From Patescibacteria group bacterium (GTDB lineage: Bacteria; Patescibacteriota; Microgenomatia; Levybacterales; UBA12049), in the NCBI GenBank assembly GCA_026004395.1, contig BPJB01000001.1, forward strand, positions 82,630-146,629: 64,000 nucleotides of DNA, given 5' to 3'. How positions within the stretch are numbered: position 1 is the stretch's first letter; each line of letters begins with the position of its first letter. Below are positions 3,499-53,604 of the stretch, in pieces. The notes beneath the pieces are model-generated. The model was not told the origin of the DNA. It searched no databases and saw nothing but the letters and a program-made list of their open reading frames with translations. The translations under genes were made by a program, and so were the position numbers.

Positions 3499-3532
3499 CA
3501 ACATCTCCCTTATACAGAGTATACTCATCAAC

Positions 3533-4735: not shown

Positions 4736-4844
4736 GAGGGTTAAATTTGGTGAGTAAAGATAATTTTTATATAACTTATGATAAATCTGTAATCTAGAAC
4801 GATTGACAAAGAAAGGAATTTTTACTATCTTAAGGATTGATTAT

Positions 4845-6190: not shown

Positions 6191-7550
6191 TTCTATTTGT
6201 AAATCCTTCTGCTTTGAAGGGATAACTTGCAATAAGCGAACAATGTTGCTCAAGAAGTTGTTTATCAACAATCTCTGTCAACACATCTTCACGTATTGAA
6301 AATTCGGGATAGAATGCTCCTTGTGTCACAATTATCGAGTGTTGAGAAATAGCATCCTTGGTAAGTTGTGTTGCATTAAGAAAACCTTTACGAAAAATAT
6401 TATCATTTGTGTCTACAATATTATTAAGAAGCGGTGTATTTGAAAGATAAGCTAGTGCGGGTGTAACACTATTCACGCCATATACTGTTTTTGGTCTTTC
6501 TTGTTTGATATGGGACACAATTGTATCAATAGATTTCAGAGATTGCAGATCTGCAAATTTGGTAAGATAACTAAATAAATTATAGAAAATAAAGAAAAGC
6601 AATATTGTTGGAATAAACATTTTCTGAAGATGGAGTGTCTTATTAAGATATAAATAAAAAAAACTAAAAGATAATGCTAGAAAAGGGGTAACTTCGTTAA
6701 GATAAAGATAATAGGTGTCTTTATATATTAAGAAAAATAGAGTGCTGAAAAGCGATACAAGACCGAAAAACAGATTTTTTTTGATAGTCAAGATATTGAA
6801 GAGTAGCAGAATAACAAATGGAAAATCATGCGTTAAAAAAAACCAGATAATTTCTTTTTTGGGAATTCCTTGTGATCGAGTAAGCGAATATATAAAAACA
6901 TCTCTTATAAATTCATCCCTGGCAAAAATAAGCGATGGGATAAGTGTTAAGAGAGTACTCAACAGTAATCCATATAAAAATACAGCTAATTTGCTTATTT
7001 TTTTAAAAAGTAAGAATACAATATAGGCAAGAACTATTGGTAAAAAATATGCTTTAGTCATCAGAGAGAGACCCATCCAAAATCCTGTAAAGAAGAGCTG
7101 TTTTTTTTGAAAGAAGAAATAACTTATAACAGCAAAAAGTGATGCTAAGAATACTCCAGTCTGATGGTCAGATGTTGCGAGAATAATAAATGAGAATAAA
7201 TACAAAGCCACAACACTTATTCCCAAAAAAACATTCTTTGTTTGGTTTATAACAATAAAAAACATCACAATACTAATAAAAATAATTTCGATACTAGCTG
7301 TCAGATAATAAAATGAAAGATTTCCTTGTAATAAAAAGTAATAGAGAGCAGCTACATAAGGAAGCAAGGGAAAGTTGGTAAAGAAGACATCTTTATAAAG
7401 AATTTTTCCTTCTAAAAGAAGTTTCCCTGTGTAAAAATAGATATTGGTGTCGGATGCACGTATACTATTAGTTGAAAGTTTTAAAAGAAAAAAAGTAACA
7501 CATAAAATTAAGAGAATTAACAATGGTTTTTTAATATGCATAACTTTCAT
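6171..7550 (-). CDS. polytopic membrane protein, probable GT-C-type glycosyltransferase with C-terminal extracytoplasmic domain
   Basis: About 10 predicted TM helices, then a ~110 aa soluble C-terminus. Architecture typical of GT-C (ArnT/PMT-like) enzymes. No decisive motif. Confidence 0.4.
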   Translation of the reverse strand: MKVMHIKKPLLILLILCVTFFLLKLSTNSIRASDTNIYFYTGKLLLEGKILYKDVFFTNFPLLPYVAALYYFLLQGNLSFYYLTASIEIIFISIVMFFIVINQTKNVFLGISVVALYLFSFIILATSDHQTGVFLASLFAVISYFFFQKKQLFFTGFWMGLSLMTKAYFLPIVLAYIVFLLFKKISKLAVFLYGLLLSTLLTLIPSLIFARDEFIRDVFIYSLTRSQGIPKKEIIWFFLTHDFPFVILLLFNILTIKKNLFFGLVSLFSTLFFLIYKDTYYLYLNEVTPFLALSFSFFYLYLNKTLHLQKMFIPTILLFFIFYNLFSYLTKFADLQSLKSIDTIVSHIKQERPKTVYGVNSVTPALAYLSNTPLLNNIVDTNDNIFRKGFLNATQLTKDAISQHSIIVTQGAFYPEFSIREDVLTEIVDKQLLEQHCSLIASYPFKAEGFTNRINLFRC

Positions 7551-11470: not shown

Positions 11471-12610
11471 ATGCCCCAAAACAAAAAACAACTTCAAAAA
11501 CGATTCTTCACTGTAGTATTTTTTTTGTTGCTAACTATTGGTGCTTTTATATTTTATAAAGTTATTTTCTATGCACCAGTTGCTTATGAGTTGATATTTA
11601 AAAAAGATATTGAACTTAAACAGGATGCAAAAAAGAATATTAATATGCTCCTACTTGGTATAGGAGGAGGACAGCATGATGGACCACTTTTAACAGATAC
11701 AATTATTTTTATGAGTATCAATCCTGAAGAAAATAGAGTAACTATGGTGACTATTCCCAGGGATTTGTGGGTGCCAGAGTTACAGGCAAAGATAAATACC
11801 GCGTACGCTTATGCCGAGCAGAAAAAACCAGGTGGAGGTCTCATTTTAACAAAAAGAATCGTTGGAAAAATTTTGAATCAAGATATCGATTATGGTTTTC
11901 GCATTGATTTTAATGGATTTATTAGAGCGATAGATATGGTGGGTGGGATTGATATTGATGTGGAACGAACATTTGATGATTATGAATATCCCATAAGTGG
12001 AAAGGAGACAGATACTTGTGGATATGAAGGAGAAGAATTTGAAAAGAGAGCAACAGCAGAAGCTCAGCTTGAGGCGTTTCCTTGCCGCTACGAACATTTA
12101 CATTTTGAGAAAGGATATCAGCATATGGATGGAGAAACTGCACTTAAGTACGTTCGTTCAAGACATGCCAAAGGACCAGAAGGGACAGATTTTGCTCGTT
12201 CAAAAAGACAGGAAAAAGTGATTAACGCTTTTAAAGAGAAAATCTTTTCTGCAGAAACATTTCTTAATCCTATAAAACTTGTTAGCTTATACGATATTTT
12301 CAAAGACAGTATAGATACAGATATCAAACAAGAAGAGTATGCTGATTTTGTAAAATTAGCAGAGAAAATGAAAGACGCTAAAATTGAGAGTTTCGTACTG
12401 GACGTTGGAGATGATGCACAAGGCAGATCAGGACTTTTAATAAATCCCACACCTAGTGCAGAGTATAAATTCCAATGGGTGATTATTCCACGTTTGGGTA
12501 ATGGCAATTATCGTGAGATTCAAGAATATGTTTTATGCCTAGTTGAGAAGCAAAACTGTAAAATTTCTCCAACAGTGAATCCACAAGTTTCACAGAAAAA
12601 TAGTTTTTAA
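11471..12610 (+). CDS. LytR-CpsA-Psr (LCP) family cell-envelope phosphotransferase
   Basis: N-terminal TM anchor, then LLLGIGGG..DTIIFMSINP..TIPRDLWV, which is characteristic of the LCP domain. Confidence 0.8.
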   Translation: MPQNKKQLQKRFFTVVFFLLLTIGAFIFYKVIFYAPVAYELIFKKDIELKQDAKKNINMLLLGIGGGQHDGPLLTDTIIFMSINPEENRVTMVTIPRDLWVPELQAKINTAYAYAEQKKPGGGLILTKRIVGKILNQDIDYGFRIDFNGFIRAIDMVGGIDIDVERTFDDYEYPISGKETDTCGYEGEEFEKRATAEAQLEAFPCRYEHLHFEKGYQHMDGETALKYVRSRHAKGPEGTDFARSKRQEKVINAFKEKIFSAETFLNPIKLVSLYDIFKDSIDTDIKQEEYADFVKLAEKMKDAKIESFVLDVGDDAQGRSGLLINPTPSAEYKFQWVIIPRLGNGNYREIQEYVLCLVEKQNCKISPTVNPQVSQKNSF

Positions 12611-12617
12611 AGGTATT

Positions 12618-14996
12618 TTAGAATGCAGATGCTAATTTATAGATAACTGTTTCTCCACTTTGAAATACTTTTTTTCCTATTTGTTGAAATTTTTCTTTTT
12701 TTAATTGGGGGTATTTTTCTCTTTCAAGAGAGCCTAAAAAAACATATTCGACGTTATACCTTTTTAAAAGAGATTTTGTCTCTTCCAAATCATTTGATTC
12801 ATATAGTCTTCTGATATCCTCTATTCGAGGAGCAGGAATATTGTAAGTTCCTCTCCACAGCCATTCATGGACAGTCCATCCAAGAATAGTTGGCAGTCCC
12901 GTATTTGTTGATACCCGAGCATAATCTGTGTAGGAGTCTCCTTGAGCTTCAAGAATGACTGGTTGTCCATGTATATTCTTTTGTAGCCATTGAATTGCTG
13001 CAAAGTCGTGTGGATACTTTTCTTTTAGGTAATAAGTTCCGTCAAGTCCCTGATAATCAGAAGAAGTAGTTCTTGCTGTAAATGCCAGTACGTTTTGATA
13101 ATAGGAATTAATTGCAAGGTAAGGATAAATGAAGACTATAGTCAGTAATATAAAACAACTGATGAAAAAGAGAGAATAAATTAAGAGCCCTTTGAGAGTT
13201 TGGGTATTTTTTAGCTTCTGAGCAATACGAGGTATAATGTAGCCACTAGCGAGTGAGAGCATAATAAAGGATTGAAAAACAAGTTTAAACATTGTATTGG
13301 CTCGATAATGTGCAGGGTAAATATCTTTTGCATAGATTAACTCTGGAAGAAATATAAGAAAGAGAGAAAGTGTGATTAGACAAAGAATAAATTTGTCAGA
13401 CACAAGAAGTGTTTTACTTTTGCGAATAAAAAAAAGAAAAATTATTATGAAAAAGAAGAAGAATCCATAAAGAATGAGAATTTGCCACAATGGTGATCTA
13501 TCGCAATGATTTGGTTCAAAAAGAAAAGGACCAATGTTGCCGATTTGTGTGAGAAATTGAGGAGCACAGATTATACCAATACCAGAAATAAATGGTTTGA
13601 AAAAGAGTGAAAAAGGCAGAGAAAACACAAGAAATCCTCCTAGAAGAACAACTATCGGAATAATACTTTCCCCACCAACAAGAAAAACTTTGCGGATAAA
13701 ATGCTGTTTATAATGAGTTTTATTCCACTGAAGATACGTCAGTAAAAATACAGAGAGAAGGAAGTAAATGAATCCATCCCATGCATTGGTCATATATAAG
13801 ATAGCAAGCAGAAAACTAAGAAACAAAAGTGAAGCAAGATTTAGAGGAATTTTATCTGTTATTGTTTTAGATAAAAGAGAGAAATTTTTTATCTTGTATC
13901 TTTTAAATTTTGGCGCAGCATCCTTGCTAGATTGTGCAGATAAAAAGAGTGAAAGTAAGTATGCAATACTTAAGAGTACAAATGGAACATCAAGTACGTG
14001 TCCGTGAAGATCTGCCACAACCCAGGAATATATAGGAAATTCATGAATAGTATTTTTAATAAAACGCGTTGCATTAGGATACCAATATGAGTTGGGAAAA
14101 GAAAAAAATTTTTGTTGTTCGTAAGCATCACATTTGATTATCTTTGAAGTGCCTTTTTCAGTATGTTGTGTATAGAACTTTTTTTTATAACAAGGATTTA
14201 AAAGTGCAAATTCTAAATTCCAGAAAGGAACAGGTTTTTCATTTTCATAAGGTTTGAAAAAACTATAAATAGTATGCAGATTTCCGGAAAATGTAACAAG
14301 AAGAGCACTAAGAATTCCTGCAGCTAGAATATTGAACAATCTTCTTTTTTTATCTTGAATAAAAGAAGAGAGTGTTATGCCTATTGAGAAGCAAGCGGTG
14401 AATGTGAGAGCAACTAGTGAAGCCAACATGAGATTATAAGTATAATTGGCTGGTATTAGGGATATTTTTGTGAGTATGGCTGTTGTTAGATGTCCAAAAT
14501 AATAATAGTTAATGGTAAAGGGAGTAAGCCAGATATCTTTTGGAGGAAGGTACTCACTTCTTAGTAGAGAATTGATGAATCCATAATCCATAAATTTTTC
14601 CAATCCATATATTTCAGGTGCAAATCCTCTAATGTATGACCAAAATACAAGTATGCAAAAAAATAATATTTCCTCAAATACAAAGATTTTCCAATATTTT
14701 TTTATTATTTTCGTGAATGAAAAGCTATGAAATTTTTTAACTAATATTATTCCTTGTGTGAGTAGAATAAGAGAGAAGATTATGATAATTGAAAGAATAG
14801 AAAATCTTAAGATATGAAGACTGCTCAAAAGTAATACTAAATAAGAAATAAGGATGATACTTAAAATCTTTGAGAAAGCATAACCTCGATCAATGAAACG
14901 TGCAAAAATAAAGGTAGTGAGAGGCAGTGAACCCATCCCTAGAATAAAGAGTAAAAACCACCATTGAATAACGCGCAAAAAATCAGCGAGTAACAT
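12618..14996 (-). CDS. large integral membrane protein with YYYFGH motif (Chlor_Arch_YYY/DUF2298-like), possible GT-C-related
   Basis: 792 aa with more than 15 TM helices, a YYYxG motif (INYYYFGHL) and a ~130 aa soluble C-terminus. Overlaps the upstream HAD gene by 14 nt. Confidence 0.5.
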   Translation of the reverse strand: MLLADFLRVIQWWFLLFILGMGSLPLTTFIFARFIDRGYAFSKILSIILISYLVLLLSSLHILRFSILSIIIIFSLILLTQGIILVKKFHSFSFTKIIKKYWKIFVFEEILFFCILVFWSYIRGFAPEIYGLEKFMDYGFINSLLRSEYLPPKDIWLTPFTINYYYFGHLTTAILTKISLIPANYTYNLMLASLVALTFTACFSIGITLSSFIQDKKRRLFNILAAGILSALLVTFSGNLHTIYSFFKPYENEKPVPFWNLEFALLNPCYKKKFYTQHTEKGTSKIIKCDAYEQQKFFSFPNSYWYPNATRFIKNTIHEFPIYSWVVADLHGHVLDVPFVLLSIAYLLSLFLSAQSSKDAAPKFKRYKIKNFSLLSKTITDKIPLNLASLLFLSFLLAILYMTNAWDGFIYFLLSVFLLTYLQWNKTHYKQHFIRKVFLVGGESIIPIVVLLGGFLVFSLPFSLFFKPFISGIGIICAPQFLTQIGNIGPFLFEPNHCDRSPLWQILILYGFFFFFIIIFLFFIRKSKTLLVSDKFILCLITLSLFLIFLPELIYAKDIYPAHYRANTMFKLVFQSFIMLSLASGYIIPRIAQKLKNTQTLKGLLIYSLFFISCFILLTIVFIYPYLAINSYYQNVLAFTARTTSSDYQGLDGTYYLKEKYPHDFAAIQWLQKNIHGQPVILEAQGDSYTDYARVSTNTGLPTILGWTVHEWLWRGTYNIPAPRIEDIRRLYESNDLEETKSLLKRYNVEYVFLGSLEREKYPQLKKEKFQQIGKKVFQSGETVIYKLASAF

Positions 14997-15549
14997 AGGG
15001 AGTATATTTTACTATTTCTGCAAGTTGAGTGATAGGAATAATATTGTAAAGAGAATGTTTATCTTTATTGTCGGTATCGGACGTTAGCCAAAAAAACTGG
15101 GTTTTTTTATGGTAGGGTGCTATATATCGCAATAAATGCAGATCGTCATCAATATAAATATCAAGATGTAATTTTTTTAATATCTCATTTTTAAAAATAT
15201 GGGGTTGTTTGTCTTCAAAATTAAAATACATGTCATCAAATAATGTGTCTAGTTTGTATTTTTCTAAAATAGATTTGGTTCTTTTTTCTAAAAAACTAAA
15301 TCGGCTAGAAATAAGAAAAAGTTGATTATTAGCACGCGGAATTTTTTTCACGACATCAATATTTTCTTTGATAATGGGACGAAAAATAGAAAGATGAAAA
15401 AAACTTCTGAGATATTGTTCAGGAAGAGTGGGGATTCTATAAATAAGTTCACCATTTGATTTTTTTTTATAAATTCTATCAATAAGTTGATCAGGTATAA
15501 ATGGAGGATAGTCAACAAAAATTTTATCAAGATCAAAACCAATTCTCAT
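14983..15549 (-). CDS. HAD-superfamily phosphatase-like protein
   Basis: IGFDLDKI (HAD motif I, DxD), LISSR (motif II Ser/Thr) and IYIDDD (motif IV). Confidence 0.45.
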   Translation of the reverse strand: MRIGFDLDKIFVDYPPFIPDQLIDRIYKKKSNGELIYRIPTLPEQYLRSFFHLSIFRPIIKENIDVVKKIPRANNQLFLISSRFSFLEKRTKSILEKYKLDTLFDDMYFNFEDKQPHIFKNEILKKLHLDIYIDDDLHLLRYIAPYHKKTQFFWLTSDTDNKDKHSLYNIIPITQLAEIVKYTPYVTR

Positions 15550-15551
15550 AT

Positions 15552-16589
15552 TTAAAGTTTAGTTAATAAATTGATTAATTTAAAGTTCCACCCTACTCTA
15601 TGAGTAGTTCCGGTTTTATGAAGTAGATTGTTCCTATGTTTTTTGTACCATAAATAACTTTCAAGCAAAAGGTCTTGGTTTGATTTTTTCGGATGCCACT
15701 GCAAAAGTTTTTCTGCTTTTTCTATAGAAACATAAGATGGAACAGGAAGTGTTTTATAGTGCCATTCTGAGAGAGGTGAAAGATTAAGTGTTTCAAGAAT
15801 TTTAAGTATCATCTGGGATGGTCTAATAGGAAGTCCTGTTATCTTTGATGATGATTTATCATAACGGATAAGGTATTGAAGATCTTTTCTCCATGTCTGA
15901 AACACTTTTGCTCCTAAGTTAAAGATCTCATTTTCTACGCTACTGGTTGCAGCTTTATATACAGCATCAACAACATCTGATACAGCCAGTAGTTGGTATT
16001 TATTTTTACCATTGCCAAGTAAAAAAACACGACGGCCAGAGTAAATTGCTTCAAACCAGAGAGTAAAAACACCCAAACGTTCAGGCCCAAGAAATGTCTT
16101 TGGACGAAGAATATTAATTGAGAGTCCTTTCCGCATGTAATCTTGACAGAGTCTTTCTGCCAAAACTTTTGATTGTCCGTAGTATCCAATTGGATTAAGG
16201 GGACTTTCTTCTTTTTCCGGAAGATTTTGTGGTACTCCATAAACTGCCGTTGAGGAGATATAAACAAATCTTTTTATCGAATGTGTAAGGGCAGCATCAA
16301 GGACAACCTTCGTTCCATCAACATTGATACTGAAAATTTTTCTTTTTTTACGTAGAATCGGGAGTGCCGCTGCTGCATGCACTACATGAGTACAACCCTT
16401 CATAGCCTGCAATACACTTTTTTTGTTCCTAACATCTCCTTTGATTACACTGACTTTTGAATGAAGATCTTTTGCCTCAAGAGGAGCAAGATCAAAAAGG
16501 ACCACGTCAAAGCCCTCATGAGAAAATTTTCTTGCCAAATGGATTCCTAGAAAACCTGTACCTCCAGTGATTAGAACTTTTTGTTTCAT
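15552..16589 (-). CDS. NAD-dependent epimerase/dehydratase (SDR family, nucleotide-sugar modifying)
   Basis: ITGGTGFLG Rossmann motif and a YxxxK region (YGQSK). Confidence 0.85.
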   Translation of the reverse strand: MKQKVLITGGTGFLGIHLARKFSHEGFDVVLFDLAPLEAKDLHSKVSVIKGDVRNKKSVLQAMKGCTHVVHAAAALPILRKKRKIFSINVDGTKVVLDAALTHSIKRFVYISSTAVYGVPQNLPEKEESPLNPIGYYGQSKVLAERLCQDYMRKGLSINILRPKTFLGPERLGVFTLWFEAIYSGRRVFLLGNGKNKYQLLAVSDVVDAVYKAATSSVENEIFNLGAKVFQTWRKDLQYLIRYDKSSSKITGLPIRPSQMILKILETLNLSPLSEWHYKTLPVPSYVSIEKAEKLLQWHPKKSNQDLLLESYLWYKKHRNNLLHKTGTTHRVGWNFKLINLLTKL

Positions 16590-16594
16590 AGAAC

Positions 16595-16627
16595 ATCATT
16601 GTACAATGATTTGTCTTGAAAAGACAA
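16595..16627. promoter_or_regulatory. perfect 16-bp palindrome ATCATTGTACAATGAT plus adjacent 7-bp stem hairpin, 5 nt upstream of the epimerase start
   Basis: Read directly: atcattgtacaatgat at 16595-16610 and ttgtctt-gaa-aagacaa at 16611-16627, inside the 86-nt gap between the GT-C gene and the epimerase gene. Confidence 0.4.
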
Positions 16628-16675
16628 TAAAAATATTTTTAAGAATTCTAAAATAGGAGAATCTATTTTTCGATT

Positions 16676-18367
16676 TTAAACATTTTTGCTGTTTTTATTG
16701 TCATTTAGAAAAATAAAATATGTTGTACGTAATTTTTCTTTAATTATTTTTTCTGGGTAATAATTCACATTTTTAAAAATAAGTACCTTGGGATGGTCAT
16801 ATACTTGAAATGTTTCTTCTGTCAGATCATCGTTGATAACAATTCCCAAAATTTGAGGATAAGAGGAAAACTCAGCAATTTTTTGGTATCCTAATTCACC
16901 GCTAAAAAGAAGCTGATAGTAGCGTTGTGTAATTGGATATTTCTTGGGAAGATGAAGTAACGTTCCATAAAGTCTGCGTGTTGTTATAAAAATATAGTCA
17001 GCTTGTGAGAGTTCTCTCGCATAATATTCTATTTTAGAAGCATTATCAGGTTCATAGATAGTAAGTTGCCTAATCTGATATTGATCTGGTAGTTTATTAC
17101 CTAAGGGAATAGGCAATCCATCATCCCAATGTTCGGTTAAGATTTTGGATCCAGGTGATATATGTTCATAAATCCATTTTGATGCGCTGATACGTGTTTG
17201 TTCTCTTACATAAATTGAAGAAAAAGCAACCGCCCAAATTATATTTATTGTCAGAAAAAAAACAAAAATAATTATCCCCAGTATCTTAAACTTTTGCTGT
17301 ATCCATGCAAGAGAGACAGACGCAGCAATCAGCAAAAAGGGAATAATTGGTACCATATAGCGTATGAACTTAGCGTACCATGCTCCCACATATGCAAAGT
17401 ATAAAAGAGGAAAAATAAATAAAATACAAAAGAGAATATTTGGTTTTTTGAAAAATTGATAGACAAGATAGATGATCCCCAAAATACTCATCACAAAGAC
17501 TGGACCTATTTGCCAAAAGAGATTTTTTAGTTGAAAAAGATATGGTTTTGTATCACTAAATTGTAAGGTATAAACAACGCGATTTGTTCCCAGAACTACA
17601 CTATTCTCAAATTCCATTGATTCTCTAAATTTATTCCATTTCAAAAAAGTATAGGGTGAGGAAAGTGTAAAAATAAAAACTGCAATACTTAAAATCATAA
17701 TTAAAAATAAGAAAGCTTTCTTAATGGAAAGTTTTTTTTCTTTGAGTAAGATGCCTAGTGTTATTAGAGGAACAATAGCGAAAGAGATTCCTGTTGTCTT
17801 AGTCGCTGCGGATATTCCAAGCAATATACCCATCCACAAAACAAGAGAAATTTTATGTTTTTTATAAAAATTAAGAGCAAGAAGAATCAGTGTAACAATA
17901 GATAAGGTAAGAAAATTCTCCGTGATCGAGAAGTGAGCTGTCTGTATTGATGAGACAGTGAATGTGTAGAGGATAGATGTTATTAATGCTACTTTCTCTT
18001 GAAATACAATTCTTGTGACAAGATACAAAGGTATCAGAGTAAGAGTTGAGAAAAAAGCAGAGAAATGTCTTCCTAACAAATTAATAAATGCCCAGTCAGA
18101 GGAAAGCAATGGATTGGAAAAGATAAAGGAAAATATGTCAGCAGTAATTTTATAAAGATAAATCAGAAATCCTCCATAAGCATAAAATTGAGGATCAAGT
18201 TGTGAGAAAAGTTTGATATGGGAAACTGCATTGGCTATATTGCGCTCATCTGGATGAAAGAAATGTCCCTGATCCCAGTTGAGGTTATTAAATCGCAGGA
18301 AGAACGCACTCAGCATCATTATAAAAAACAGGAATTTTGATCTTGTCCTCAGAGAGTTATTTTGCAT
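16676..18367 (-). CDS. GT-C-fold membrane glycosyltransferase-like protein (PMT/ArnT-related, TIGR03663-like), paralog A
   Basis: N-terminal loop motif FFHPDERNIA with the DE dipeptide of PMT/ArnT-type GT-C enzymes. About 11 TM helices and a ~170 aa C-terminal soluble domain. Confidence 0.55.
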   Translation of the reverse strand: MQNNSLRTRSKFLFFIMMLSAFFLRFNNLNWDQGHFFHPDERNIANAVSHIKLFSQLDPQFYAYGGFLIYLYKITADIFSFIFSNPLLSSDWAFINLLGRHFSAFFSTLTLIPLYLVTRIVFQEKVALITSILYTFTVSSIQTAHFSITENFLTLSIVTLILLALNFYKKHKISLVLWMGILLGISAATKTTGISFAIVPLITLGILLKEKKLSIKKAFLFLIMILSIAVFIFTLSSPYTFLKWNKFRESMEFENSVVLGTNRVVYTLQFSDTKPYLFQLKNLFWQIGPVFVMSILGIIYLVYQFFKKPNILFCILFIFPLLYFAYVGAWYAKFIRYMVPIIPFLLIAASVSLAWIQQKFKILGIIIFVFFLTINIIWAVAFSSIYVREQTRISASKWIYEHISPGSKILTEHWDDGLPIPLGNKLPDQYQIRQLTIYEPDNASKIEYYARELSQADYIFITTRRLYGTLLHLPKKYPITQRYYQLLFSGELGYQKIAEFSSYPQILGIVINDDLTEETFQVYDHPKVLIFKNVNYYPEKIIKEKLRTTYFIFLNDNKNSKNV

Positions 18368-18368
18368 A

Positions 18369-19991
18369 TTACTTTTTTATTTTATAAATCATCACAACAG
18401 GCCGATCAAATATATTTGCTGTTTGCTCATATGCGAAAATTGGATCTCCAAGATAAAGAATTTTGCAGTAGAGATCACATGGTGTCTGATATAAAAGATC
18501 ATATGCTGTGGGTTGTGAAATAAGGGATGTATAAAATTCATAACCCTTGGGAAAATTTCTTGCATCTGCAACTCTTGTCTTAAAAAGTCTTTGACTAGGG
18601 AGAATAATATAATCATTTGTTTTTAAAAGATTTGATAAAGTATTGTCATAAGATTTTGACAATGTTTCTTCGAGATCATAAAAATTAAAAAGTTTGATTG
18701 ATGGAAAATAGGAGTTAAAAGGAAGAATACCTAAATCATAGACTTCACTAATTATTTTTGCATTCTGCGGTAGATGTTTTTTTGCCCACTCAGCAGCCAT
18801 TATTCTACTGTCAGGTGTTAGAAGAACGGTTTGTAAATAAGAATAAGCAAAAATAAATCCTATTATGAAAGAAACGACTGCAAAAGAAATCAATACTTTT
18901 GATTTCATTTGTATATGTTCAACGTATTCCGATAATGCACAGGCAATAATAAGATAGATAAAAGGAATAGTTGGAACAAAATAACGAGTCCATTGAGTAA
19001 AAAGAAATGTTTGAGAAAGAAATAATAACAAAAAGAATGCTATTAATAGCATATACGCTATATTTTTTCTTTGAATAGCAAAAATAAACAAATATGCAAA
19101 CGATACTAAAAAAACAATAACTATAAAAGGATTCAGAAGAAACGGATATATTTTTAAAAAAGGAAAAACAATGGGAGTAGCTGATAGAAATTCTCCTGTA
19201 TAAAAAACGCGAATCCCCCCCAAAGCAACAGATGATTCATATTTTATACTTCCTAAAAATGAACTGTAGTCTAGAAATGTATAAGGATTGGTTGAGAGAA
19301 AAATTGCACTGGATAGGAGAATTGTAAAGAGGATGAAGAATATAGAAGAAATAATAGATATTTTCTGTTGTGATTTTTGTTCAATGATTATTACCATGAT
19401 CAATAGTGGTAACAAAATAATGCTTGATATCTTAAAAGAAATGAGGATTCCAAATGTAATTGCTATTCCCACTAAATATCTTCTCTTGTGTGTTTTTATA
19501 TAAAGAAGAGATAAAAAGAATAAAAGAAGTGTAAAATAGGTAAGCCACATTTCGTATGTTCCAAAATGAGCGAACTGGATGAGACCAACGCTTACTGTTC
19601 CTAAGATAGTTGCTAATATCCCGCTAATGTTATTCTTGAGTATTTTTCCAGTGCTATAAAGAAGAAGTAAGAGCAGTAAAGATAACAAAGATGAGAAAAA
19701 TCTGAGAGTAAGAATGGCGTTTTCAAAAGAAACATCATTTTGCCAAGTTTGGTTTTTGATTAGATTAAAGAGTAGAGCAGCAAAATATGAGAGATATAAA
19801 GGAAGACTTCCATAAGCAAAAAAATGAGGATTCATTTGATCTGGGAAAAGAAGTTGGTCGATACTCGTTGCGATATTGCGTTCATCCGGATGAAAGTAAA
19901 ATGGTTTTCCCCAATCAAGATGTGTAATACGAAAAGCTGCTCCAATAATAATAAGTCCCACAAGTAAAATACTAGGTGTAATGTATCTCAT
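18369..19991 (-). CDS. GT-C-fold membrane glycosyltransferase-like protein, paralog B
   Basis: Same FHPDERNIA motif and topology as paralog A. Separated from paralog A by 1 nt. Confidence 0.55.
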   Translation of the reverse strand: MRYITPSILLVGLIIIGAAFRITHLDWGKPFYFHPDERNIATSIDQLLFPDQMNPHFFAYGSLPLYLSYFAALLFNLIKNQTWQNDVSFENAILTLRFFSSLLSLLLLLLLYSTGKILKNNISGILATILGTVSVGLIQFAHFGTYEMWLTYFTLLLFFLSLLYIKTHKRRYLVGIAITFGILISFKISSIILLPLLIMVIIIEQKSQQKISIISSIFFILFTILLSSAIFLSTNPYTFLDYSSFLGSIKYESSVALGGIRVFYTGEFLSATPIVFPFLKIYPFLLNPFIVIVFLVSFAYLFIFAIQRKNIAYMLLIAFFLLLFLSQTFLFTQWTRYFVPTIPFIYLIIACALSEYVEHIQMKSKVLISFAVVSFIIGFIFAYSYLQTVLLTPDSRIMAAEWAKKHLPQNAKIISEVYDLGILPFNSYFPSIKLFNFYDLEETLSKSYDNTLSNLLKTNDYIILPSQRLFKTRVADARNFPKGYEFYTSLISQPTAYDLLYQTPCDLYCKILYLGDPIFAYEQTANIFDRPVVMIYKIKK

Positions 19992-19992
19992 A

Positions 19993-21264
19993 TCACTCTT
20001 GAGTCATAATGCGTGCGGCTTTGGTTCCTATGGCAACTGCGTAGTTTGTTCCCCGATCCCATGGATATACTTGCTGCATATTGGCAAGGTAGATATTGGG
20101 AAGAGGAGTTTTGATAGAGGGAACAAGTTTGGAATAGTTAGGAGGGATTATTGGTTGAGCAAAATGTGCAGCAAATTTTTCAATAGCAATGATATTATCT
20201 GTGATTTGAGGATTAATGCGTTGTAAATAAGGAAGATAGATTTTAAATATTCGCTTGCCCGTGTATGAAAAAAATGGATGAGTTGATGGGAGATATTTCC
20301 CAAGATATAAGAGATGTTCGTTATTATAGTATTTTTTATCCACAAAATTTGTATGTTCTATAATCGCCATAAGAGGAGCTTCTCTATCACAAATACTAAG
20401 CCAATATGTCCCATCCTGAAGAAAAGGTTTTTTCATTCTAACAACTAAATTGATTGCTCCAAGACCATGCAGCGAACTAAGTTTTTCTTTATAACTTGCT
20501 GTTATATCTGGTAAAAGATTGAGCAAATTTGGAGAAGGTAGTGTCACCAGAATTTTATCGAAGGTATATTTTTCTAAAGCGGTTGTGAGGTGAATGCCTT
20601 GAGCTGATAATTGAAGTGATAAAACAGGAGTAGCATAGTGAATAATTGCTCCTTGTTTTTTTAAATTGTCAGCTAATGCTTGGGCAAAACGCAGAAAACC
20701 TCCTTTAGGATAGGCAAGTGTTGCTGTTCGTTTCCTAATTCTTGCCCAGAACCATGCAAGAGAAATGTTGGTATAGTATTCTCCAAATTTGTTTATTAAC
20801 TGTGGTTCCCAAATTGTTGCAAATGCTTGATGGCCCATTATTTTTTCCAAGAAGGTAACTGCATCAATACGTTCTAGCAATTGCCAATAAGGGTTGTAAC
20901 GCAAAAACGCAAGGGTGGTTGCCATGCGTATTCGTGAAAGAAAAGAGATCTTAGGGAAAGTAAGTACTGTTAGTGGGGAATCAAACTGGTAGATCGCATT
21001 GTCAACGAATACAGATGTTTTTGGTCGTTTGATTAATACAGAGTGTTTTAATTCTTTTGCAAGTTGTAAAACTGCATCATCATTTGTAAACCAGTGATGG
21101 TAGTGTTGTTCTAGTGTCCATTTCCATCTTGGATGTTGAAATCCAATAGCTAATCCACCAGGACTTCTATCTTTTTCAAAGATAGTAATACTATGTCCTT
21201 TTTTTATGAGTGCAAAAGCAGCAGCAAGACCTGTAAATCCAGCTCCTATAATTGCTATCTTCAT
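19993..21264 (-). CDS. FAD-dependent oxidoreductase (amine-oxidase/CrtI/PPO-like fold)
   Basis: IIGAGFTGLAAAF dinucleotide-binding motif, then EKDRSPGG. Confidence 0.7.
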   Translation of the reverse strand: MKIAIIGAGFTGLAAAFALIKKGHSITIFEKDRSPGGLAIGFQHPRWKWTLEQHYHHWFTNDDAVLQLAKELKHSVLIKRPKTSVFVDNAIYQFDSPLTVLTFPKISFLSRIRMATTLAFLRYNPYWQLLERIDAVTFLEKIMGHQAFATIWEPQLINKFGEYYTNISLAWFWARIRKRTATLAYPKGGFLRFAQALADNLKKQGAIIHYATPVLSLQLSAQGIHLTTALEKYTFDKILVTLPSPNLLNLLPDITASYKEKLSSLHGLGAINLVVRMKKPFLQDGTYWLSICDREAPLMAIIEHTNFVDKKYYNNEHLLYLGKYLPSTHPFFSYTGKRIFKIYLPYLQRINPQITDNIIAIEKFAAHFAQPIIPPNYSKLVPSIKTPLPNIYLANMQQVYPWDRGTNYAVAIGTKAARIMTQE

Positions 21265-22670
21265 AATGAAGCTTTGCCACGGCTTAGTACAAAGAGGAGT
21301 AGTCCTATACCAGCCATGAGTGTTGTAATTATACCTGAGAATACCACCAATGAACTACCCGGTGATTCTTGTGGCGGAGGAAGAGTTGGTGTAGGAGAGA
21401 GATCAATCGTTGGTGTGATGGAGGCAGGAGTACTCTCAACAGTAGGTAGCGGGGTATTTGTTGGAGTAGGTTGTTGGGTGGGTGTTGGTGTTGGTGTATT
21501 TGTAGGAGTTGGAGTTGGTTCTTGAGGAGAAACAGAGGGTTCTGTAAATTGACTACCTTGAGCATATACTGTGAATGATCGTTTAATAATTCTTAAAATG
21601 CCATTTTCATCTTTTGTTTTAATCGTGATAGTATGCTCACCTGGCGCAAGTTTTTGTTGAGGCCTGAATGACCAAACACCTCTGGTATCTGCTTTGATTG
21701 TTGTTTTAATTGTAGTTTGTGAATTAATTTCTATTTCAACCTCTGAACCAGGTGGTGCTGTTCCTTCAAATTTTGGTTGTTGATCACTAAAAGCTTCTTG
21801 ATTTTTGGGAACAAGAATGCGTGGTTCGGTTGGTAATGCCTCTGTTGCAGTAAAGCTGGGAAAACTTTCTTTTATAGTTTGTGATGCTGATTCGGATGAT
21901 AAATTATTTGATAGAGGTTCAAATGAAGTGGTGAAATCATATGTGTTGGATAAGGTTATTTGAGGAACGGGATTAATCTGCGATGCAAGAAGAGATACTC
22001 TTGACTCATAATTTGAGCTTTTGACGAGTAACTTTATAACGGAGTCATCTTTAAGTTGTAGATAAGAGGTATAATCTTTTGTTCGAATTGCATTCAATGG
22101 CAACACAAAAGTTCCATCTTTTTTTGTTAGAGTTGAGATGACTTGTGCATTTTCACTGACTAAAAAGATAAGAATATTGTTATCGCTGGTACCATCAGGA
22201 TAAACAACCTTACCTACAATAGGGGGTTGAGGTGGTGGATTATCAGAGAGAGGAGAAAGCGTTTGAACTATAAATGGCATATCTTTATCTAGAAAAGTTT
22301 TATCCGCTGAGGTAATAGTGAAGTAATATTTGGTATTGGGCGAAAGATTTCTAACAGTAATATGATGTGTGATGTATGGCTGTGGTGTACCTGATTGCTG
22401 ATCGCGATCATCAAATGCAACTTTCCCAAGAGATGTGTTTTCTCCGTAAGAGAGTGTTCCTATAACTGGTTCTTTAGTAACATAGGAGACAGTGAAAGAT
22501 GTATCTGATAAATTAGTGATGCGAATATCCTCAGGTGCATACTCCGGTGCTGCTTTTGTTAGGAAAAGAGCGCCGCTGTTAATAAGCCAATTTAGTGAAA
22601 AAAGTCCAACTCCAAGAAGTATAAATCCAAGAATTGTTGGTATTCTTTTATTCCAGAGTGATCTGTTCAT
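21261..22670 (-). CDS. cell-surface protein with fibronectin-III-like domains, Pro/Thr-rich linker and C-terminal TM anchor
   Basis: N-terminal signal anchor, FN3-like segment (NLSDTSFTVSYVT), the linker PTPTPTNTPTPTPTQQPTPTNTPLPT, and a C-terminal hydrophobic helix plus SRGKASL tail. No LPxTG. Confidence 0.5.
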   Translation of the reverse strand: MNRSLWNKRIPTILGFILLGVGLFSLNWLINSGALFLTKAAPEYAPEDIRITNLSDTSFTVSYVTKEPVIGTLSYGENTSLGKVAFDDRDQQSGTPQPYITHHITVRNLSPNTKYYFTITSADKTFLDKDMPFIVQTLSPLSDNPPPQPPIVGKVVYPDGTSDNNILIFLVSENAQVISTLTKKDGTFVLPLNAIRTKDYTSYLQLKDDSVIKLLVKSSNYESRVSLLASQINPVPQITLSNTYDFTTSFEPLSNNLSSESASQTIKESFPSFTATEALPTEPRILVPKNQEAFSDQQPKFEGTAPPGSEVEIEINSQTTIKTTIKADTRGVWSFRPQQKLAPGEHTITIKTKDENGILRIIKRSFTVYAQGSQFTEPSVSPQEPTPTPTNTPTPTPTQQPTPTNTPLPTVESTPASITPTIDLSPTPTLPPPQESPGSSLVVFSGIITTLMAGIGLLLFVLSRGKASL

Positions 22671-22999
22671 TGTGTTGTTTCTCCTTGAGTTTCTGCTTCA
22701 ACTGTAGCAATAGGCTCAGCAGGAGGTATTGGAGTAATAGTAAGAGAAGCTTCTTGAGAACTGATCTGATTATCAGTTTGTAAATAATTCAAATTGGGGG
22801 TTATTACCTTGCGTTTTTTTAGACGGTTTAGAACTTCTTTATTAAATGATGAATTTATGGGTAGGATTGTTAAGCTTTGAGATTCAGTGATAGTTGTGGC
22901 TACTCTTTTGTTATAGATAGTAAATCCAATCCAAGCGAGTATTACTACAAAAGATGGAATAATAAGATAAATAAGATTTTGGTACTGCTTTTTGTTCAT
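22667..22999 (-). CDS. small single-pass membrane protein (possible pilus-assembly accessory, PilP-like position)
   Basis: 110 aa with an N-terminal TM helix and Pro-rich C-terminus. Tightly coupled between the PilO-like and surface-protein genes. Confidence 0.3.
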   Translation of the reverse strand: MNKKQYQNLIYLIIPSFVVILAWIGFTIYNKRVATTITESQSLTILPINSSFNKEVLNRLKKRKVITPNLNYLQTDNQISSQEASLTITPIPPAEPIATVEAETQGETTQ

Positions 23000-23001
23000 A
23001 T

Positions 23002-23622
23002 TTATAATTTATAATATGCCTGAGCGTTAATAGTCATTTTTAGAGTACTACTTCCTTCTTGTAAACGGATAATTGTAATATCCTTAACAAGGATAATTCT
23101 GTCAAACGCTATTAGATCATTGTAGAAACGTTGAAGTTGATCATATGTTCCTTCAACTACGATTACAAAGTTAAATGACTCAAGTTTTGCTCCAGGATTT
23201 CTTTTCAGAAGATCTATCTGTTGCAGGTTGATGCTACTTGTGCTAATTCCCGCATTGGAGAAGAGTGTTTGTATTTGGCCAACTAACTTTACCACTTCAG
23301 GATTTTGAGGAATAGCAGCAAAGATTAGAGGCAGTTGAGGGTTCAACAAGTTATATTCTTGCTGGAGTAGTGTCATGTTTTTAATTTTTGTTTCAAGTTG
23401 CGTATGGATGAATTTTCTATCCTCTAAGCTTTTTTGAAGCTGTGCTATAGTGGACAAAGTGGGAGTAATCGCAAAGATCCCAAAAAATGAGAAAGCAAAG
23501 AATGTGAGGATAAGAATGATATACATTTGCGTTTTTTCATTTTTAATATCAGGTAGAGAACGTATATAGGAAAGATATCTCTTTTTGGATAGTTCTTGAA
23601 AAAGTTGTTTATTGATTTTCAT
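23002..23622 (-). CDS. PilO-like membrane protein
   Basis: About 200 aa: short cytoplasmic N-terminus, one TM helix, coiled-coil segment, then a globular domain. Confidence 0.45.
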   Translation of the reverse strand: MKINKQLFQELSKKRYLSYIRSLPDIKNEKTQMYIILILTFFAFSFFGIFAITPTLSTIAQLQKSLEDRKFIHTQLETKIKNMTLLQQEYNLLNPQLPLIFAAIPQNPEVVKLVGQIQTLFSNAGISTSSINLQQIDLLKRNPGAKLESFNFVIVVEGTYDQLQRFYNDLIAFDRIILVKDITIIRLQEGSSTLKMTINAQAYYKL

Positions 23623-23624
23623 AA

Positions 23625-24254
23625 TTATCTTGCTTGCTCAATTGGGATAGGTTGTCTTAAAGGTAAAGACTCAGGACTTTCTGTTTTCAGACGAGCAGAT
23701 ACTATAGCTGAAAATACAGCGCGTGATGTTTGATTTTCAATTCGATCAATACTCACTGATTTGATCGGCGCATATGATCTAAGAGCGCTGATAAATTCAT
23801 TAAGACCACTAACAGAATTAGCTGTAATATCCATACGGACAGAAGCTGAAGTGACAGTAAGAGATGTGAAACTAACCTTTCCTGATGCGAAATCAACAAT
23901 TGACGTAAGAGTTGTTGTTACATCAGAAGATGACCTATCTAATCTGTCAGCCTCAGCAAGTCTTTCTTGAAGTGATCTGAATGATGCTTCTTGGGGTTTT
24001 AATGCCTCAACAATTGCTTGTTTGGCTTTAATTTTGTCATGCAGATCAATGAGCTGTCTATCTAGTGTAAAGCGATAGAGAAAAGCTGCAAGCGCAATGG
24101 TTTCTGTAAGAATGACCAGAAATCTGCCTCCTGTAATCGCCCATTGTATAAATACTTCCCAGGAAGCATTGCCCTGACGTTTAAGAAGATTGATAGATAG
24201 ATATTGTGCATTATTTTTTTGCATTGCAGTATTACTCCAACACCAAAATGCCAA
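23625..24254 (-). CDS. PilN-like membrane protein (INLL motif)
   Basis: N-terminal SINLLKRQ matches the PilN INLLP motif. Followed by one TM helix, a coiled coil and a periplasmic domain. Probable start at ATG 24224. Confidence 0.5.
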
Positions 24255-24368
24255 AGCTTATTTGGCCTATTTCCAGTCTATTTATTTTTCTTAGAAAAGT
24301 CAAAACAATTGCTATCTAGCAGGATAGAAAAAAGTATGTTATACTTAATTTATAAATTCGAAAATCGC

Positions 24369-24413
24369 AATCCGAATAGTTTCGTATTTCGCATTTCGGA
24401 TTTTATTTGTTAT
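24369..24413 (+). promoter_or_regulatory. 8-bp stem hairpin (AATCCGAA...TTCGGATT) plus T-rich tract immediately upstream of fusA
   Basis: Inverted repeat 24369-24376 / 24395-24402, followed by TTTATTTGTTAT and the fusA ATG. Confidence 0.3.
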
Positions 24414-27691: not shown

Positions 27692-28870
27692 ATGGCACGA
27701 AAAAGAATAAGTGAGTACAAAGCAAAAATGCTTCTTTTTGAAGCATTAGGTCTTCCCTATCAGGGAATACAGGTTAGAAATTCTGATCTATCTTTTTATA
27801 CTTCTCTAGATAATACCAAGACCTACGTTGTGAAGGTTGATCAAGGAGTGAAAAAACGATTTAAGCAGGGACTTATTCATTTAGATATTCACTCTGAAAT
27901 GCTTTTAGATTCAATAGAGGACTTGCGAAACAAAGGTTACTCTCAGTTTCTGATTGAACCATATTACAAGCACAAAGCAGAAGATGAGCGCTATCTTGCA
28001 CTAGAGCGAATCAGAGAAGGAATAGCCGTTTATGTCTCAAAAAAGGGAGGAATAGATATTGAAGAACAACAAAACTTTGTTCAACAATTTATTATTCCTC
28101 AAGATACCTATCAGGAAGTAGCCAAATATATTGGAATAGATGCCAAATTGGTTGAAAAAATTATAAAAGTAATGGATAAGTTCTATATCTCCTTTCTTGA
28201 GATAAACCCACTAGTTGTTAAAGAGAACAAGCTTTTATTTTTAGATCTTGCAGTTGAAGTAGACAGTGCAGGATCGTTTTTTGTAAAAGATGCGTGGAAT
28301 GAGAGAGATTTTATAGATTATGCTGTAGAGCATACAGTTGAGGAAGCGGTAGTTGAGGAATTATCCACTAGAAGTCAGGCTTCTTTTAAACTTGTCGTAC
28401 TTAATCCCAATGGATCTATTTTCATGCTTCTTTCTGGAGGTGGAGCAAGCATTGTCCTTGCTGATGAAGTATATAATCAAGGATTTGGAAAAGAACTTGC
28501 AAATTATGGAGAGTACAGCGGCAATCCCAATGCAGAGGAAACCTATATCTATACCAAACAGCTTTTGAGCTTATTATTAAAGTCAAAAGCACGAAACAAA
28601 ATTTTAATTATTGCCGGTGGAGTTGCTAATTTTACTGATATTCGAATTACATTTAGAGGTATTATTCAAGCGCTTACTGAGGTGAAGCATGAGCTTCAAA
28701 AACAAAATATTAAGGTGTATGTCAGGCGAGGCGGACCATATCAGGAGGAAGGACTTGCAATGATGAAAAGCTTTCTTGAAAAAGAAAAACTCCTTGGTGA
28801 CGTATCTGGACCCGAGATGGTACTAACCGATATCGTAGGAGAAGCTTTGCGCTTTCTAAAATCAGAATAG
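27692..28870 (+). CDS. aclB: ATP-citrate lyase small (beta) subunit, ATP-grasp/SucC-like
   Basis: Long identity blocks with the N-terminal half of human ACLY and Chlorobium AclB: FLIEPYYKH, ELANYGEYSGNPNAEETY, ILIIAGGVANFTDIRITFRGI, VYVRRGGPYQEEGL. Confidence 0.8.
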   Translation: MARKRISEYKAKMLLFEALGLPYQGIQVRNSDLSFYTSLDNTKTYVVKVDQGVKKRFKQGLIHLDIHSEMLLDSIEDLRNKGYSQFLIEPYYKHKAEDERYLALERIREGIAVYVSKKGGIDIEEQQNFVQQFIIPQDTYQEVAKYIGIDAKLVEKIIKVMDKFYISFLEINPLVVKENKLLFLDLAVEVDSAGSFFVKDAWNERDFIDYAVEHTVEEAVVEELSTRSQASFKLVVLNPNGSIFMLLSGGGASIVLADEVYNQGFGKELANYGEYSGNPNAEETYIYTKQLLSLLLKSKARNKILIIAGGVANFTDIRITFRGIIQALTEVKHELQKQNIKVYVRRGGPYQEEGLAMMKSFLEKEKLLGDVSGPEMVLTDIVGEALRFLKSE

Positions 28871-28909
28871 TTTAAATTTTAAAAATCAAATATTTAAGAG
28901 ATTTAAATT

Positions 28910-52474: not shown

Positions 52475-52539
52475 ACAGATTGTTTTAAGAATACTATATT
52501 TGAATTCTTCAATCAATACTCTGATATAGAAAGTATAAT

Positions 52540-53595: not shown

Positions 53596-53604
53596 AATCG
53601 AATA

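Follow-up and report, generated by a model that had tools for sequence, protein, structure and literature searches.

A conserved Microgenomates locus links PilN/PilO-family proteins and a stalked surface protein to GT-C glycosyltransferases

A ten-gene cluster on the minus strand of a 64-kb stretch of DNA (hereafter the window; G+C ~35%) from a metagenome-assembled Patescibacteria (Microgenomates) genome probably produces a surface protein decorated with sugars, along a route that has not been described before. The cluster appears to combine two modules. The first would consist of a PilN/PilO pair, a small bitopic protein and a secreted Ig/fn3-like stalk protein with a sortase-like signal. The second would consist of a flavin adenine dinucleotide (FAD)-dependent oxidoreductase, a conserved glycosyltransferase of the GT-C fold with an extra paralog, a DUF2298 membrane protein and an optional SDR/HAD-like cassette with its own putative promoter. 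We hold it at about even probability that the cluster is a conserved Microgenomates envelope locus in which the PilN/PilO/surface-protein module is served by an extracytoplasmic glycosylation module that places a lipid-linked pentofuranose onto the stalk. No description of the locus was found in the searchable literature. The coupling of the glycosylation module to PilN/PilO and to a sortase-type Pro/Thr-stalk protein, as observed in synteny, is new, and the glycosylation module is a new variant of the known GT-C systems that use lipid-phosphate sugars.

All ten minus-strand open reading frames (ORFs) of the original prediction are present and extend from 24224 or 24254 down to 12618, and most of its gene-family assignments were upheld by Pfam and NCBIfam. 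The successive junctions of the ten genes measure 2, 2, -4, -4, 1, 1, 86, 2 and -14 nt; the expected spacing of 0–4 nt with a single 86-nt gap mostly holds, except that one overlap measures 14 nt. The features of the region are as follows.

24225–24413, no strand: divergent intergenic region between the PilN-like gene and the EF-G gene
23625–24224, minus strand: PilN-family bitopic membrane protein; the ORF is extendable to TTG at 24254, and the likely start is ATG 24224
23002–23622, minus strand: PilO-family bitopic membrane protein (PF04350)
22667–22999, minus strand: small bitopic protein 's' with an N-terminal transmembrane (TM) segment and no family match
21261–22670, minus strand: surface protein 'SURF' (Pur_ac_phosph_N/fn3 and Big_13)
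19993–21264, minus strand: cytoplasmic FAD-dependent oxidoreductase of the amine-oxidase/phytoene-desaturase-like superfamily (PF01593, PRK07233)
18369–19991, minus strand: extra GT-C paralog, 540 aa (PMT_2, FHPDERN loop motif)
16676–18367, minus strand: conserved GT-C glycosyltransferase, 563 aa (PMT_2, FHPDERN in the first external loop)
16590–16675, minus strand: 86-nt intergenic gap with promoter-like TTGTCT-N18-TACAAT
15552–16589, minus strand: extended-SDR epimerase/reductase of the GalE type (PF01370)
14983–15549, minus strand: cytoplasmic HAD-like phosphatase 'h188', 188 aa (motifs in orthologs)
12618–14996, minus strand: DUF2298/Chlor_Arch_YYY membrane protein, 792 aa (TIGR03662, predicted GT-C fold)
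11471–12610, plus strand: convergent LytR-CpsA-Psr (LCP) gene (PF03816 at 114.8 bits)

The linkage between the two modules was followed in loci from three sources: six contig look-ups; a GT-C alignment scan with one genome per species, which gave 80 loci at 33–60% identity from Levy-, Davies-, Blackburn-, Gottesman-, Woese- and Shapirobacteria; and a metagenome scan from the PilN side with a nine-sequence alignment, which gave 80 further loci. The loci, which carry L numbers below, were annotated with profiles built from the window proteins, and the FAD profile was built from the FAD parts only. The PilN-like, PilO, 's' and surface-protein genes form a quartet whose members always occur together. 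The full quartet is present in 33 of the 49 GT-C-centred loci of at least 19 kb, together with the FAD and DUF2298 genes in 28 and with DUF2298 but no FAD gene in 5; two loci contain neither quartet, FAD gene nor DUF2298. All PilN-side loci with at least 8 kb of downstream sequence (33/33) have the quartet followed by one or more of FAD, GT-C and DUF2298. The predicted link of PilN, PilO and the surface protein to glycosylation genes is thus kept across many Microgenomates lineages. The linkage persists when the upstream flank changes (EF-G, MurJ/LepA or others) and where a UbiA gene replaces the FAD gene in Shapirobacteria-type loci. In L113, L119 and L159–161, the usual glycosylation genes are swapped for three other GT-C-like membrane proteins, one of which bears a PMT-type FDEVYHA motif, and the quartet linkage is kept. 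The survival of the linkage through these swaps of flanks and genes indicates that the quartet keeps GT-C company through many rearrangements, while the glycosylation core can stand alone. A contig labelled Candidatus Limnocylindrales (Chloroflexota; L073, DATLDE010000012.1) was also observed to carry the whole Microgenomates-type cluster, with the SDR gene in two copies and a glycosyltransferase family 2 (GT2) gene; faulty binning or labelling of this contig is a more probable cause than transfer.

The PilN-like protein has a single TM segment and a coiled-coil region. An N-terminal S-I-N-L-L motif followed by the TM segment is conserved in 49 orthologs (variants INLV, LSLLP and INLLP); these orthologs begin just before the motif, which makes ATG 24224, and not TTG 24254, the probable start. 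The Pfam search of the window protein gives no match, and its orthologs give weak matches to PF05137 (PilN). The family profile matches Myxococcus PilN (3jc8) in register (residues 60–146 versus 60–146, E = 8e-5), and this match, with the motif, supports the proposed PilN-likeness. The assignment of PilO was confirmed by PF04350 (50.6 bits against a cut-off of 22), and its gene adjoins the PilN-like gene in every locus examined. The small protein 's' gave no family match in Pfam and NCBIfam searches. It is found in all loci that have the PilN/PilO pair, and the ortholog alignment shows an N-terminal TM segment, the motif I.PI.P.FDT..L..LK.R and a Ser/Thr/Pro-rich tail. The original prediction also stated that the window encodes no PilM, PilB, PilC or pilin, which holds among the ORFs scanned. 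Neither the window nor the surroundings of the quartet in ~130 loci yielded a pilin, PilM, PilB, PilC or PilD, and the PilN-like gene is preceded by EF-G, MurJ, LepA or other genes. In these bacteria, PilB/T/C/M/N/O are usually encoded close together (PMC6744442), which makes a PilN/PilO pair without PilM atypical.

The surface protein comprises ~470 aa and contains a Pro/Thr-rich stalk. Its fn3-like sequence, which had been noted before, was recovered by Pfam as Pur_ac_phosph_N/fn3 together with a Big_13 Ig-like domain. In the 94 orthologs, the long signal peptide includes W.KRIPTLLG, and A-[AS]-P is conserved around residue 40. They also share the folded domains, a stalk whose median P+S+T fraction is 0.52, and LPPTG or SPG(S/N)S ahead of a hydrophobic segment and a basic tail at the C-terminus. 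The N-terminus carries no motif of the G-F-T-L-I-E type and is not a prepilin signal. The window protein ends with QESPGSS, a hydrophobic segment and SRGKASL and has no LPXTG, and many orthologs have LPPTG or LPATG at the position of QESPGSS. From these sequence features, the C-terminus of the family is predicted to be a sortase-like sorting signal. The ORFs scanned in the window include no sortase gene; among Microgenomates, sortases are nearly ubiquitous (PMC6744442). In L023, L026, L029, L044 and L045, additional Pro/Thr-rich proteins with a C-terminal anchor are encoded between the surface-protein and FAD genes. Secreted Pro/Thr-rich proteins whose C-terminal anchors resemble LPPTG or LPQAG were also observed near the cluster at L113:4949-6160, L148:4974-6170 and L023:7721-8728, which suggests a family of wall-anchored stalk proteins in genomes related to that of the window. 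We infer that the surface protein is the substrate of glycosylation.

Both FHPDERN proteins are GT-C enzymes, in line with the earlier proposal. They match PMT_2 at 35.2 bits (563 aa) and 30.0 bits (540 aa), scores that barely exceed the cut-off of 26.1, and they adopt a GT-C fold. The FHPDERN motif occurs in both proteins. In 40 GT-C homologs, F37, H38, D40, E41, R42 and N43 are invariant and lie directly after TM1 in the first extracytoplasmic loop. The 563-aa protein also has a C-terminal soluble domain with an invariant E-x-W-D-x-G-x-P. The resemblance by eye of its EHWDDG to the WWDYG motif of oligosaccharyltransferases was pursued as a possible counterpart and was rejected as more than a lead, as a profile of the C-terminal domain gave no meaningful match against the Protein Data Bank (PDB). 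The description of the two genes as tandem paralogs stands in so far as there are two genes, but the proteins share only 31% identity and only the 563-aa one is conserved. An ortholog of the 540-aa protein (GTCb540) occurs only in the closest relative, L090, and its matches in L002–L009 are 563-type proteins only, at 27–32% identity. Neither GT-C matches TIGR03663 at E < 0.01, contrary to the suggested TIGR03663-like affiliation. In the comparison of GT-C folds, the structural match to AglB slightly exceeds that to any protein mannosyltransferase (PMT); AftA, AftB, AftD and EmbA are structural matches as well.

The 792-aa YYYxG protein belongs to DUF2298/TIGR03662, as anticipated (520.5 bits against a cut-off of 300.25). 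It contains INYYYFGH, in which N163–H169 are invariant, and the structure prediction called for earlier models it as a GT-C fold. On the basis of this model, DUF2298 is predicted to be a very divergent GT-C with an AglB-like (oligosaccharyltransferase-like) C-terminal globular domain. A profile–profile comparison of DUF2298 with the 563-type GT-C is not significant (probability 0.9%), so that their relationship is structural only, and the sequence similarity of the C-terminal domains to oligosaccharyltransferases is not significant either. The literature on DUF2298 and TIGR03662 yielded incidental mentions only, and papers on a "YYY domain" concern a different domain. Two further groups of membrane proteins were observed among these genes. 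A multi-TM family of 545–650 aa with no Pfam or NCBIfam match lies between the GT-C and DUF2298 genes in many related loci (L048:11644-13482, L077:7976-9931, L015:10581-12461, L107:14024-15661 and L111:14266-15984). It carries the motif AWSDFASHIPLIRSFSxGxNxPPQYPLFPG ... NHKFFN and is probably another GT-C-like enzyme. Multi-TM proteins of ~190 aa with no family match lie amid the GT-C genes (L073:9369-9944, L077:6720-7307 and L077:7347-7925) and are candidate flippases for the lipid-linked donor.

The predicted FAD oxidoreductase was confirmed by Amino_oxidase (PF01593, 77.7 bits) and by NF005560 (PRK07233, 390 bits against a cut-off of 252), and its domains are those of the PRK07233 family (Amino_oxidase/NAD_binding_8). 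No close solved structure was found; its closest sequence relatives, HpnE (67 bits) and the CrtI family, act on polyisoprenoids. In L008/L018 (974 aa) and L009/L021 (979 aa), the FAD enzyme and the GT-C form a single in-frame fusion protein, with the FAD enzyme at its N-terminal end. These fusions span two lineages, and the one in L009/L021 comes from two independent assemblies. The fusion implies that the FAD enzyme is cytoplasmic and works with the GT-C, on the lipid carrier or on the lipid-linked sugar.

The SDR matches Epimerase (PF01370) at 152 bits, as proposed, and carries TGGTGFLG and YGQSK; its closest solved structures are UDP-glucose 4-epimerases (GalE). The SDR and h188 genes form an optional cassette. 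The SDR (15552–16589) was also observed to be 70–73% identical across loci whose neighbouring genes are ~50% identical (compared with L006, L009 and L007), which reflects either strong constraint or recent exchange of the SDR–h188 cassette. For h188, the call of a HAD phosphatase is supported by invariant HAD motifs I–IV in 19 orthologs (DxD, S..R, K and DDD; G4, D6, D8, S81/R83, K120 and D135), but the Pfam matches to HAD families are sub-threshold only (best E 0.039–0.084, in few members). The h188 family profile gave no match against PDB sequences. The family is small (136 representative clusters at E ≤ 1e-3), and h188 always lies immediately upstream of DUF2298.

The nature of the sugar donor is indicated by the clusters of related genomes. 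A UbiA homolog (L074:5899-6828) scores 200.3 bits on NF008978, the decaprenyl-phosphate phosphoribosyltransferase family (cut-off 207), and NCBI gives this label to these Patescibacteria UbiA proteins, of which thousands exist. UbiA genes lie inside or near the cluster in L070–L074, L078, L081, L083, L089, L108, L168, L110, L113 and L126, and further in L131, L136, L141, L148 and L156. In Shapirobacteria-type loci, the UbiA-family protein occupies the FAD slot and a PAP2 phosphatase occupies the h188 slot. L072 has an overlapping UbiA–h188–SDR operon beside FAD, GT-C and DUF2298, the order in L108 and L168 is FAD–UbiA–GT-C, and in at least eight Levybacteria-type loci UbiA lies ~8–10 kb upstream. 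The UbiA and PAP2 genes of the relatives, together with the SDR and the HAD-like phosphatase, therefore indicate a lipid-linked pentofuranose donor derived from phosphoribosyl pyrophosphate (PRPP). In view of these genes, PMT-type O-mannosylation, as in the original prediction, is not the preferred reading. For the window genome, a pentofuranose donor has the best support but is unproven. No flippase of the MATE or SMR type was found in the ten-gene cluster; MurJ adjoins it in some relatives. Elsewhere in the window, a polyprenyl synthetase gene was observed at 52540–53658 on the minus strand (PF00348 at 179 bits), a possible source of the lipid carrier for the GT-C enzymes.

The organisation of transcription differs from the single unit that was first proposed. 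The palindromes reported in the 86-nt gap are present and overlap with a promoter-like -35/-10 pair that relatives conserve. A TAnnAT hexamer begins 10–25 nt ahead of the SDR start codon in 17 of 26 distinct relatives. In most cases it reads TAGAAT, within ATAGTAGAATAG, or TACAAT and lies at -13 to -15, and a TTGTC-like -35 element is often present; the -10-like TAGTAGAAT or TACAAT starts 13–15 nt before the SDR start in many relatives. The close relative L090 retains the -10 hexamer (TAAAAT) and not the perfect palindrome. A role of the palindrome as a terminator or operator was rejected, given that the -10 hexamer and not the dyad is conserved and that no terminator-like site was found there. 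As the hexamer rather than the dyad symmetry is conserved, the gap element is read as the internal promoter of the optional SDR–h188 cassette and DUF2298, and the transcript would probably be leaderless. With this conserved element before the SDR gene and an SDR–phosphatase cassette that is optional, one transcription unit is not supported; read-through from the upstream genes into SDR–h188–DUF2298 is possible. A second promoter-like sequence, TTGACT-N17-TAGACT, lies at 24303–24275, and the region 24225–24413 presumably holds the cluster promoter. The overlap of the EF-G gene with the PilN-like gene (24204–24413) is only apparent. The 772-aa EF-G ORF opens ~70 codons too early at a TTG, its orthologs have ~700 aa, and the GTP_EFTU domain begins at residue 82 of the long ORF, which places the EF-G start near 24414 and leaves a divergent intergenic region of ~190 bp.

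These components can be arranged into a tentative pathway. A polyprenyl-phosphate sugar would be made at the cytoplasmic face; the likeliest candidate is ribofuranose-5-phosphate, which a UbiA-type phosphoribosyltransferase such as those in the clusters of relatives would transfer from PRPP. The HAD-like enzyme would dephosphorylate the lipid-linked ribofuranose-5-phosphate, and the SDR, perhaps with the FAD enzyme, would epimerise or oxidise the lipid-linked sugar. The donor would then be flipped across the membrane. Outside the membrane, the GT-Cs would transfer the sugar onto Ser/Thr residues of the Pro/Thr stalk and possibly onto the tail of the small protein, while the PilN/PilO pair may retain the surface protein there until its attachment to the wall.

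Parts of this scheme have precedents. In described pentofuranose systems, a UbiA-type polyprenyl-phosphoribose synthase, a phosphatase, an optional GalE-like SDR and a GT-C together carry out the extracytoplasmic addition of pentofuranoses (Kelly et al., PNAS 2024; PMC11127046). The phosphatase there is a HAD-type domain, or the PAP2 protein Rv3807c in mycobacteria, and mycobacteria epimerise the sugar with DprE1/DprE2 (PMC11127046). By analogy, the SDR and h188 of the window appear to fit this published scheme. The Citrobacter youngae O1/O2 system (ORF12–15; PMC11127046) comprises a GT-C, a GalE-like SDR that alters the pentose of the lipid-linked donor and a HAD-family 5-phosphate phosphatase, to which the GT-C, the SDR and possibly h188 of the cluster would correspond; its UbiA-type synthase has a counterpart here only in the related loci L072, L074, L108 and L168. 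In contrast to that system, the window has no synthase or MATE flippase, contains an extra FAD enzyme that is sometimes fused to the GT-C, and encodes PMT_2/AglB-like GT-Cs plus DUF2298 with a link to PilN/PilO-like proteins. The acceptor in Citrobacter is an O antigen, whereas here it is likely a protein stalk or a wall polymer. The mycobacterial pathway of decaprenyl-phospho-arabinose and arabinan (Rv3806c, Rv3807c, DprE1, DprE2, Emb/Aft GT-Cs and Lcp1) has nearly the same parts list, as UbiA, PAP2, a FAD enzyme with an SDR, several GT-Cs and an adjacent LCP are found across the loci. However, the FAD enzyme here belongs to the amine-oxidase superfamily, whereas DprE1 is of the vanillyl-alcohol-oxidase type, and the SDR is of the extended GalE type, whereas DprE2 is a classical short SDR; the pairing of the two is not obligatory here.

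A parallel with a protein acceptor is Pseudomonas aeruginosa TfpW, a GT-C that transfers D-arabinofuranose from a polyprenyl-phospho-arabinofuranose donor onto pilin (PMC11127046). The likeness would extend to the GT-C, the lipid-linked pentofuranose, the O-glycosylated Ser/Thr of a surface protein and the type IV pilus context, but no pilin or pilus ATPase is present here and the partner is a sortase-type surface protein. The GT39 PMTs of Actinobacteria and eukaryotes share the GT-C fold and the invariant Asp-Glu of the first external loop, and their acceptors are secreted and rich in Pro, Thr and Ser, as the putative acceptor here is. They differ in that the Pfam scores are marginal here, the MIR domain is absent, the C-terminal domain is different and the neighbourhood indicates a non-hexose donor. 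AglB, PglB and STT3 (GT66) differ in that WWDYG is absent here and the cluster has no genes for the assembly of polyprenyl-diphosphate oligosaccharides. The PilM–PilN–PilO subcomplex resembles the first module in the adjacent PilN-like/PilO pair and in the INLL-type motif, single TM segment and coiled coil of the PilN-like protein. In the loci examined, PilM, PilB, PilC and pilin are not nearby, unlike in that subcomplex, and the small bitopic and wall-anchored proteins follow instead. In Actinomyces oris, GspA is a sortase-anchored surface glycoprotein that is glycosylated with the help of an LCP enzyme. This pathway is similar in its wall-anchored protein with a sorting signal, its extracytoplasmic glycosylation and its LCP gene, although the LCP link here is one of adjacency only; the A. 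oris pathway is not known to have GT-C or PilN/PilO components.

Several observations weigh against a functional link between the two modules. The FAD–DUF2298 core occurs without the quartet in 14 of the 49 GT-C-centred loci; therefore, the dedicated machine of the original prediction is better described as two separable modules. The internal promoter-like element divides SDR–h188–DUF2298 from the upstream genes. The downstream LCP gene is equally syntenic, as are TIM, UvrD and FemAB, the unrelated housekeeping genes on its far side. Part of the conservation is thus gene-order inertia, and the adjacency of LCP is weak evidence of its membership. These points would be expected if the modules were two unrelated neighbours, of which one makes a wall glycopolymer (arabinan- or ribofuranan-like) that LCP ligates to peptidoglycan and the other, the quartet, is a separate surface complex kept in place by the compactness and slow rearrangement of the genomes. 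The same account draws on the LCP gene, which in most loci of the Levybacteria type is convergent with DUF2298 and adjoins the cluster, even in the variant whose GT-C genes differ, and on the set of UbiA, PAP2, FAD, SDR, GT-C and LCP, which mirrors the mycobacterial arabinan pathway (PMC11127046). However, the quartet was never found without adjacent GT-C genes (33/33), and the adjacency is kept when the GT-C families are exchanged (L113/L119) or the upstream flank is changed. Additional Pro/Thr-rich anchored proteins gather at the junction of the modules, and LCP is missing from the Shapirobacteria-type and Gottesmanbacteria-type loci. We therefore regard two unrelated neighbours as unlikely, while still giving the idea real weight. 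LCP itself is a possible partner that attaches the glycan to the wall or to the protein, and its membership in the cluster is uncertain.

The proposed chemistry also has observations against it. The 64-kb window contains no UbiA phosphoribosyltransferase (searched by tblastn), no GT2 polyprenyl-phosphate sugar synthase and no flippase. The FAD enzyme falls outside the DprE1 family (no FAD_binding_4/ALO fold) and often occurs without SDR, h188 or a nearby UbiA. In addition, h188 frequently occurs without SDR, and in at least eight representative clusters an N-terminal h188 is fused to a GT4 (GT-B) rather than to UbiA (L170:6696-8354, P0258; P0251, P0260, P0290, P0299, P0314, P0322 and P0334); the fusion in L170 lies divergently beside DUF2298–LCP–TIM–UvrD. 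A ribose-5-phosphate phosphatase is therefore only one option for h188. A hexose route, in which the FHPDERN GT-Cs are PMT-like O-mannosyl or O-hexosyl transferases supplied with a polyprenyl-phosphate hexose from elsewhere, the substrate of the SDR is a nucleotide sugar and that of the FAD enzyme is the polyprenol carrier, would suit the missing phosphoribosyltransferase, the PMT_2 scores above threshold in both GT-Cs, the invariant Asp-Glu in loop 1, the polyisoprenoid substrates of HpnE and the CrtI family, and the UDP-hexose 4-epimerases that are the closest solved relatives of the SDR. This route is improbable nonetheless: a GT2 mannose or glucose synthase is not in the window and is no regular member of the related clusters (L073, L071 and L061 only), the recurrent UbiA phosphoribosyltransferase and PAP2/HAD phosphatases are not needed for a hexose, and AglB is the slightly better structural match. 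The PilN/PilO pair could also belong to the type IV pilus machine of the cell, with GT-Cs that glycosylate pilins as TfpW does and with the surface protein as a bystander or a pilus-associated wall part. The two are genuine members of their families with a conserved INLL-type motif, which in known systems binds PilM. TfpW, with its polyprenyl-phospho-arabinofuranose donor, sets a precedent. Type IV pili are also widespread in this bacterial group (PMC6744442). The lack of pilin, PilM, PilB, PilC and PilD around the quartet and the constant partnership of PilN/PilO with a surface protein that has no prepilin signal leave pilin glycosylation only a slight chance. The reading of one envelope locus, with a pentofuranose placed on the stalk, is retained. 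In its most detailed form, PilN/PilO would have been recruited outside the type IV pilus as a scaffold, DUF2298, as a new oligosaccharyltransferase-like GT-C, and the AglB/PMT-like GT-C would O-glycosylate the sortase-anchored stalk with a PRPP-derived pentofuranose, and a non-DprE1 FAD enzyme would tailor the donor; taken as a whole, this fuller version is quite improbable.

The remainder of the window includes genes for EF-G, Ddl, an ATP-citrate-lyase-like pair, a ribosomal-protein operon and the polyprenyl synthetase, and scans of the window for tRNAs and Rfam families gave no matches. The ATP-citrate-lyase-like pair (27692–30703, plus strand) encodes Citrate_synth_N and Citrate_bind domains, followed by CoA-ligase and citrate-synthase C-terminal domains; it stands in an otherwise metabolically minimal Patescibacteria genome and is shared by the relatives L001 and L006. 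A nickel superoxide dismutase gene (Sod_Ni; 4803–5626, plus strand) is directly followed by that of a 97-aa S26-type peptidase, presumably the maturation protease of Sod_Ni, and the pair is kept in L002 and L004. Five ORFs of 188–459 aa have no Pfam match at E ≤ 0.001: 3470–4735 (plus strand) and 6171–7550, 51320–52516, 55822–56838 and 56903–57469 (minus strand).

Microgenomates form a large uncultured part of the Candidate Phyla Radiation with ultra-small cells, and their envelope is essentially unknown. The locus described here is among the few multi-gene envelope systems conserved across this group. It provides the first functional context and fold assignment for DUF2298 (TIGR03662), which also occurs in Chloroflexi and Archaea, and it presents PilN/PilO-family proteins in a context without a pilus machine. 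Glycosylation with lipid-linked pentofuranoses is known from mycobacteria, Pseudomonas pilins and some O antigens, and the gene content of these clusters suggests that it is widespread in Microgenomates. If the surface protein is the glycosylated product, it would be a candidate for the host-contact surface of these episymbionts.

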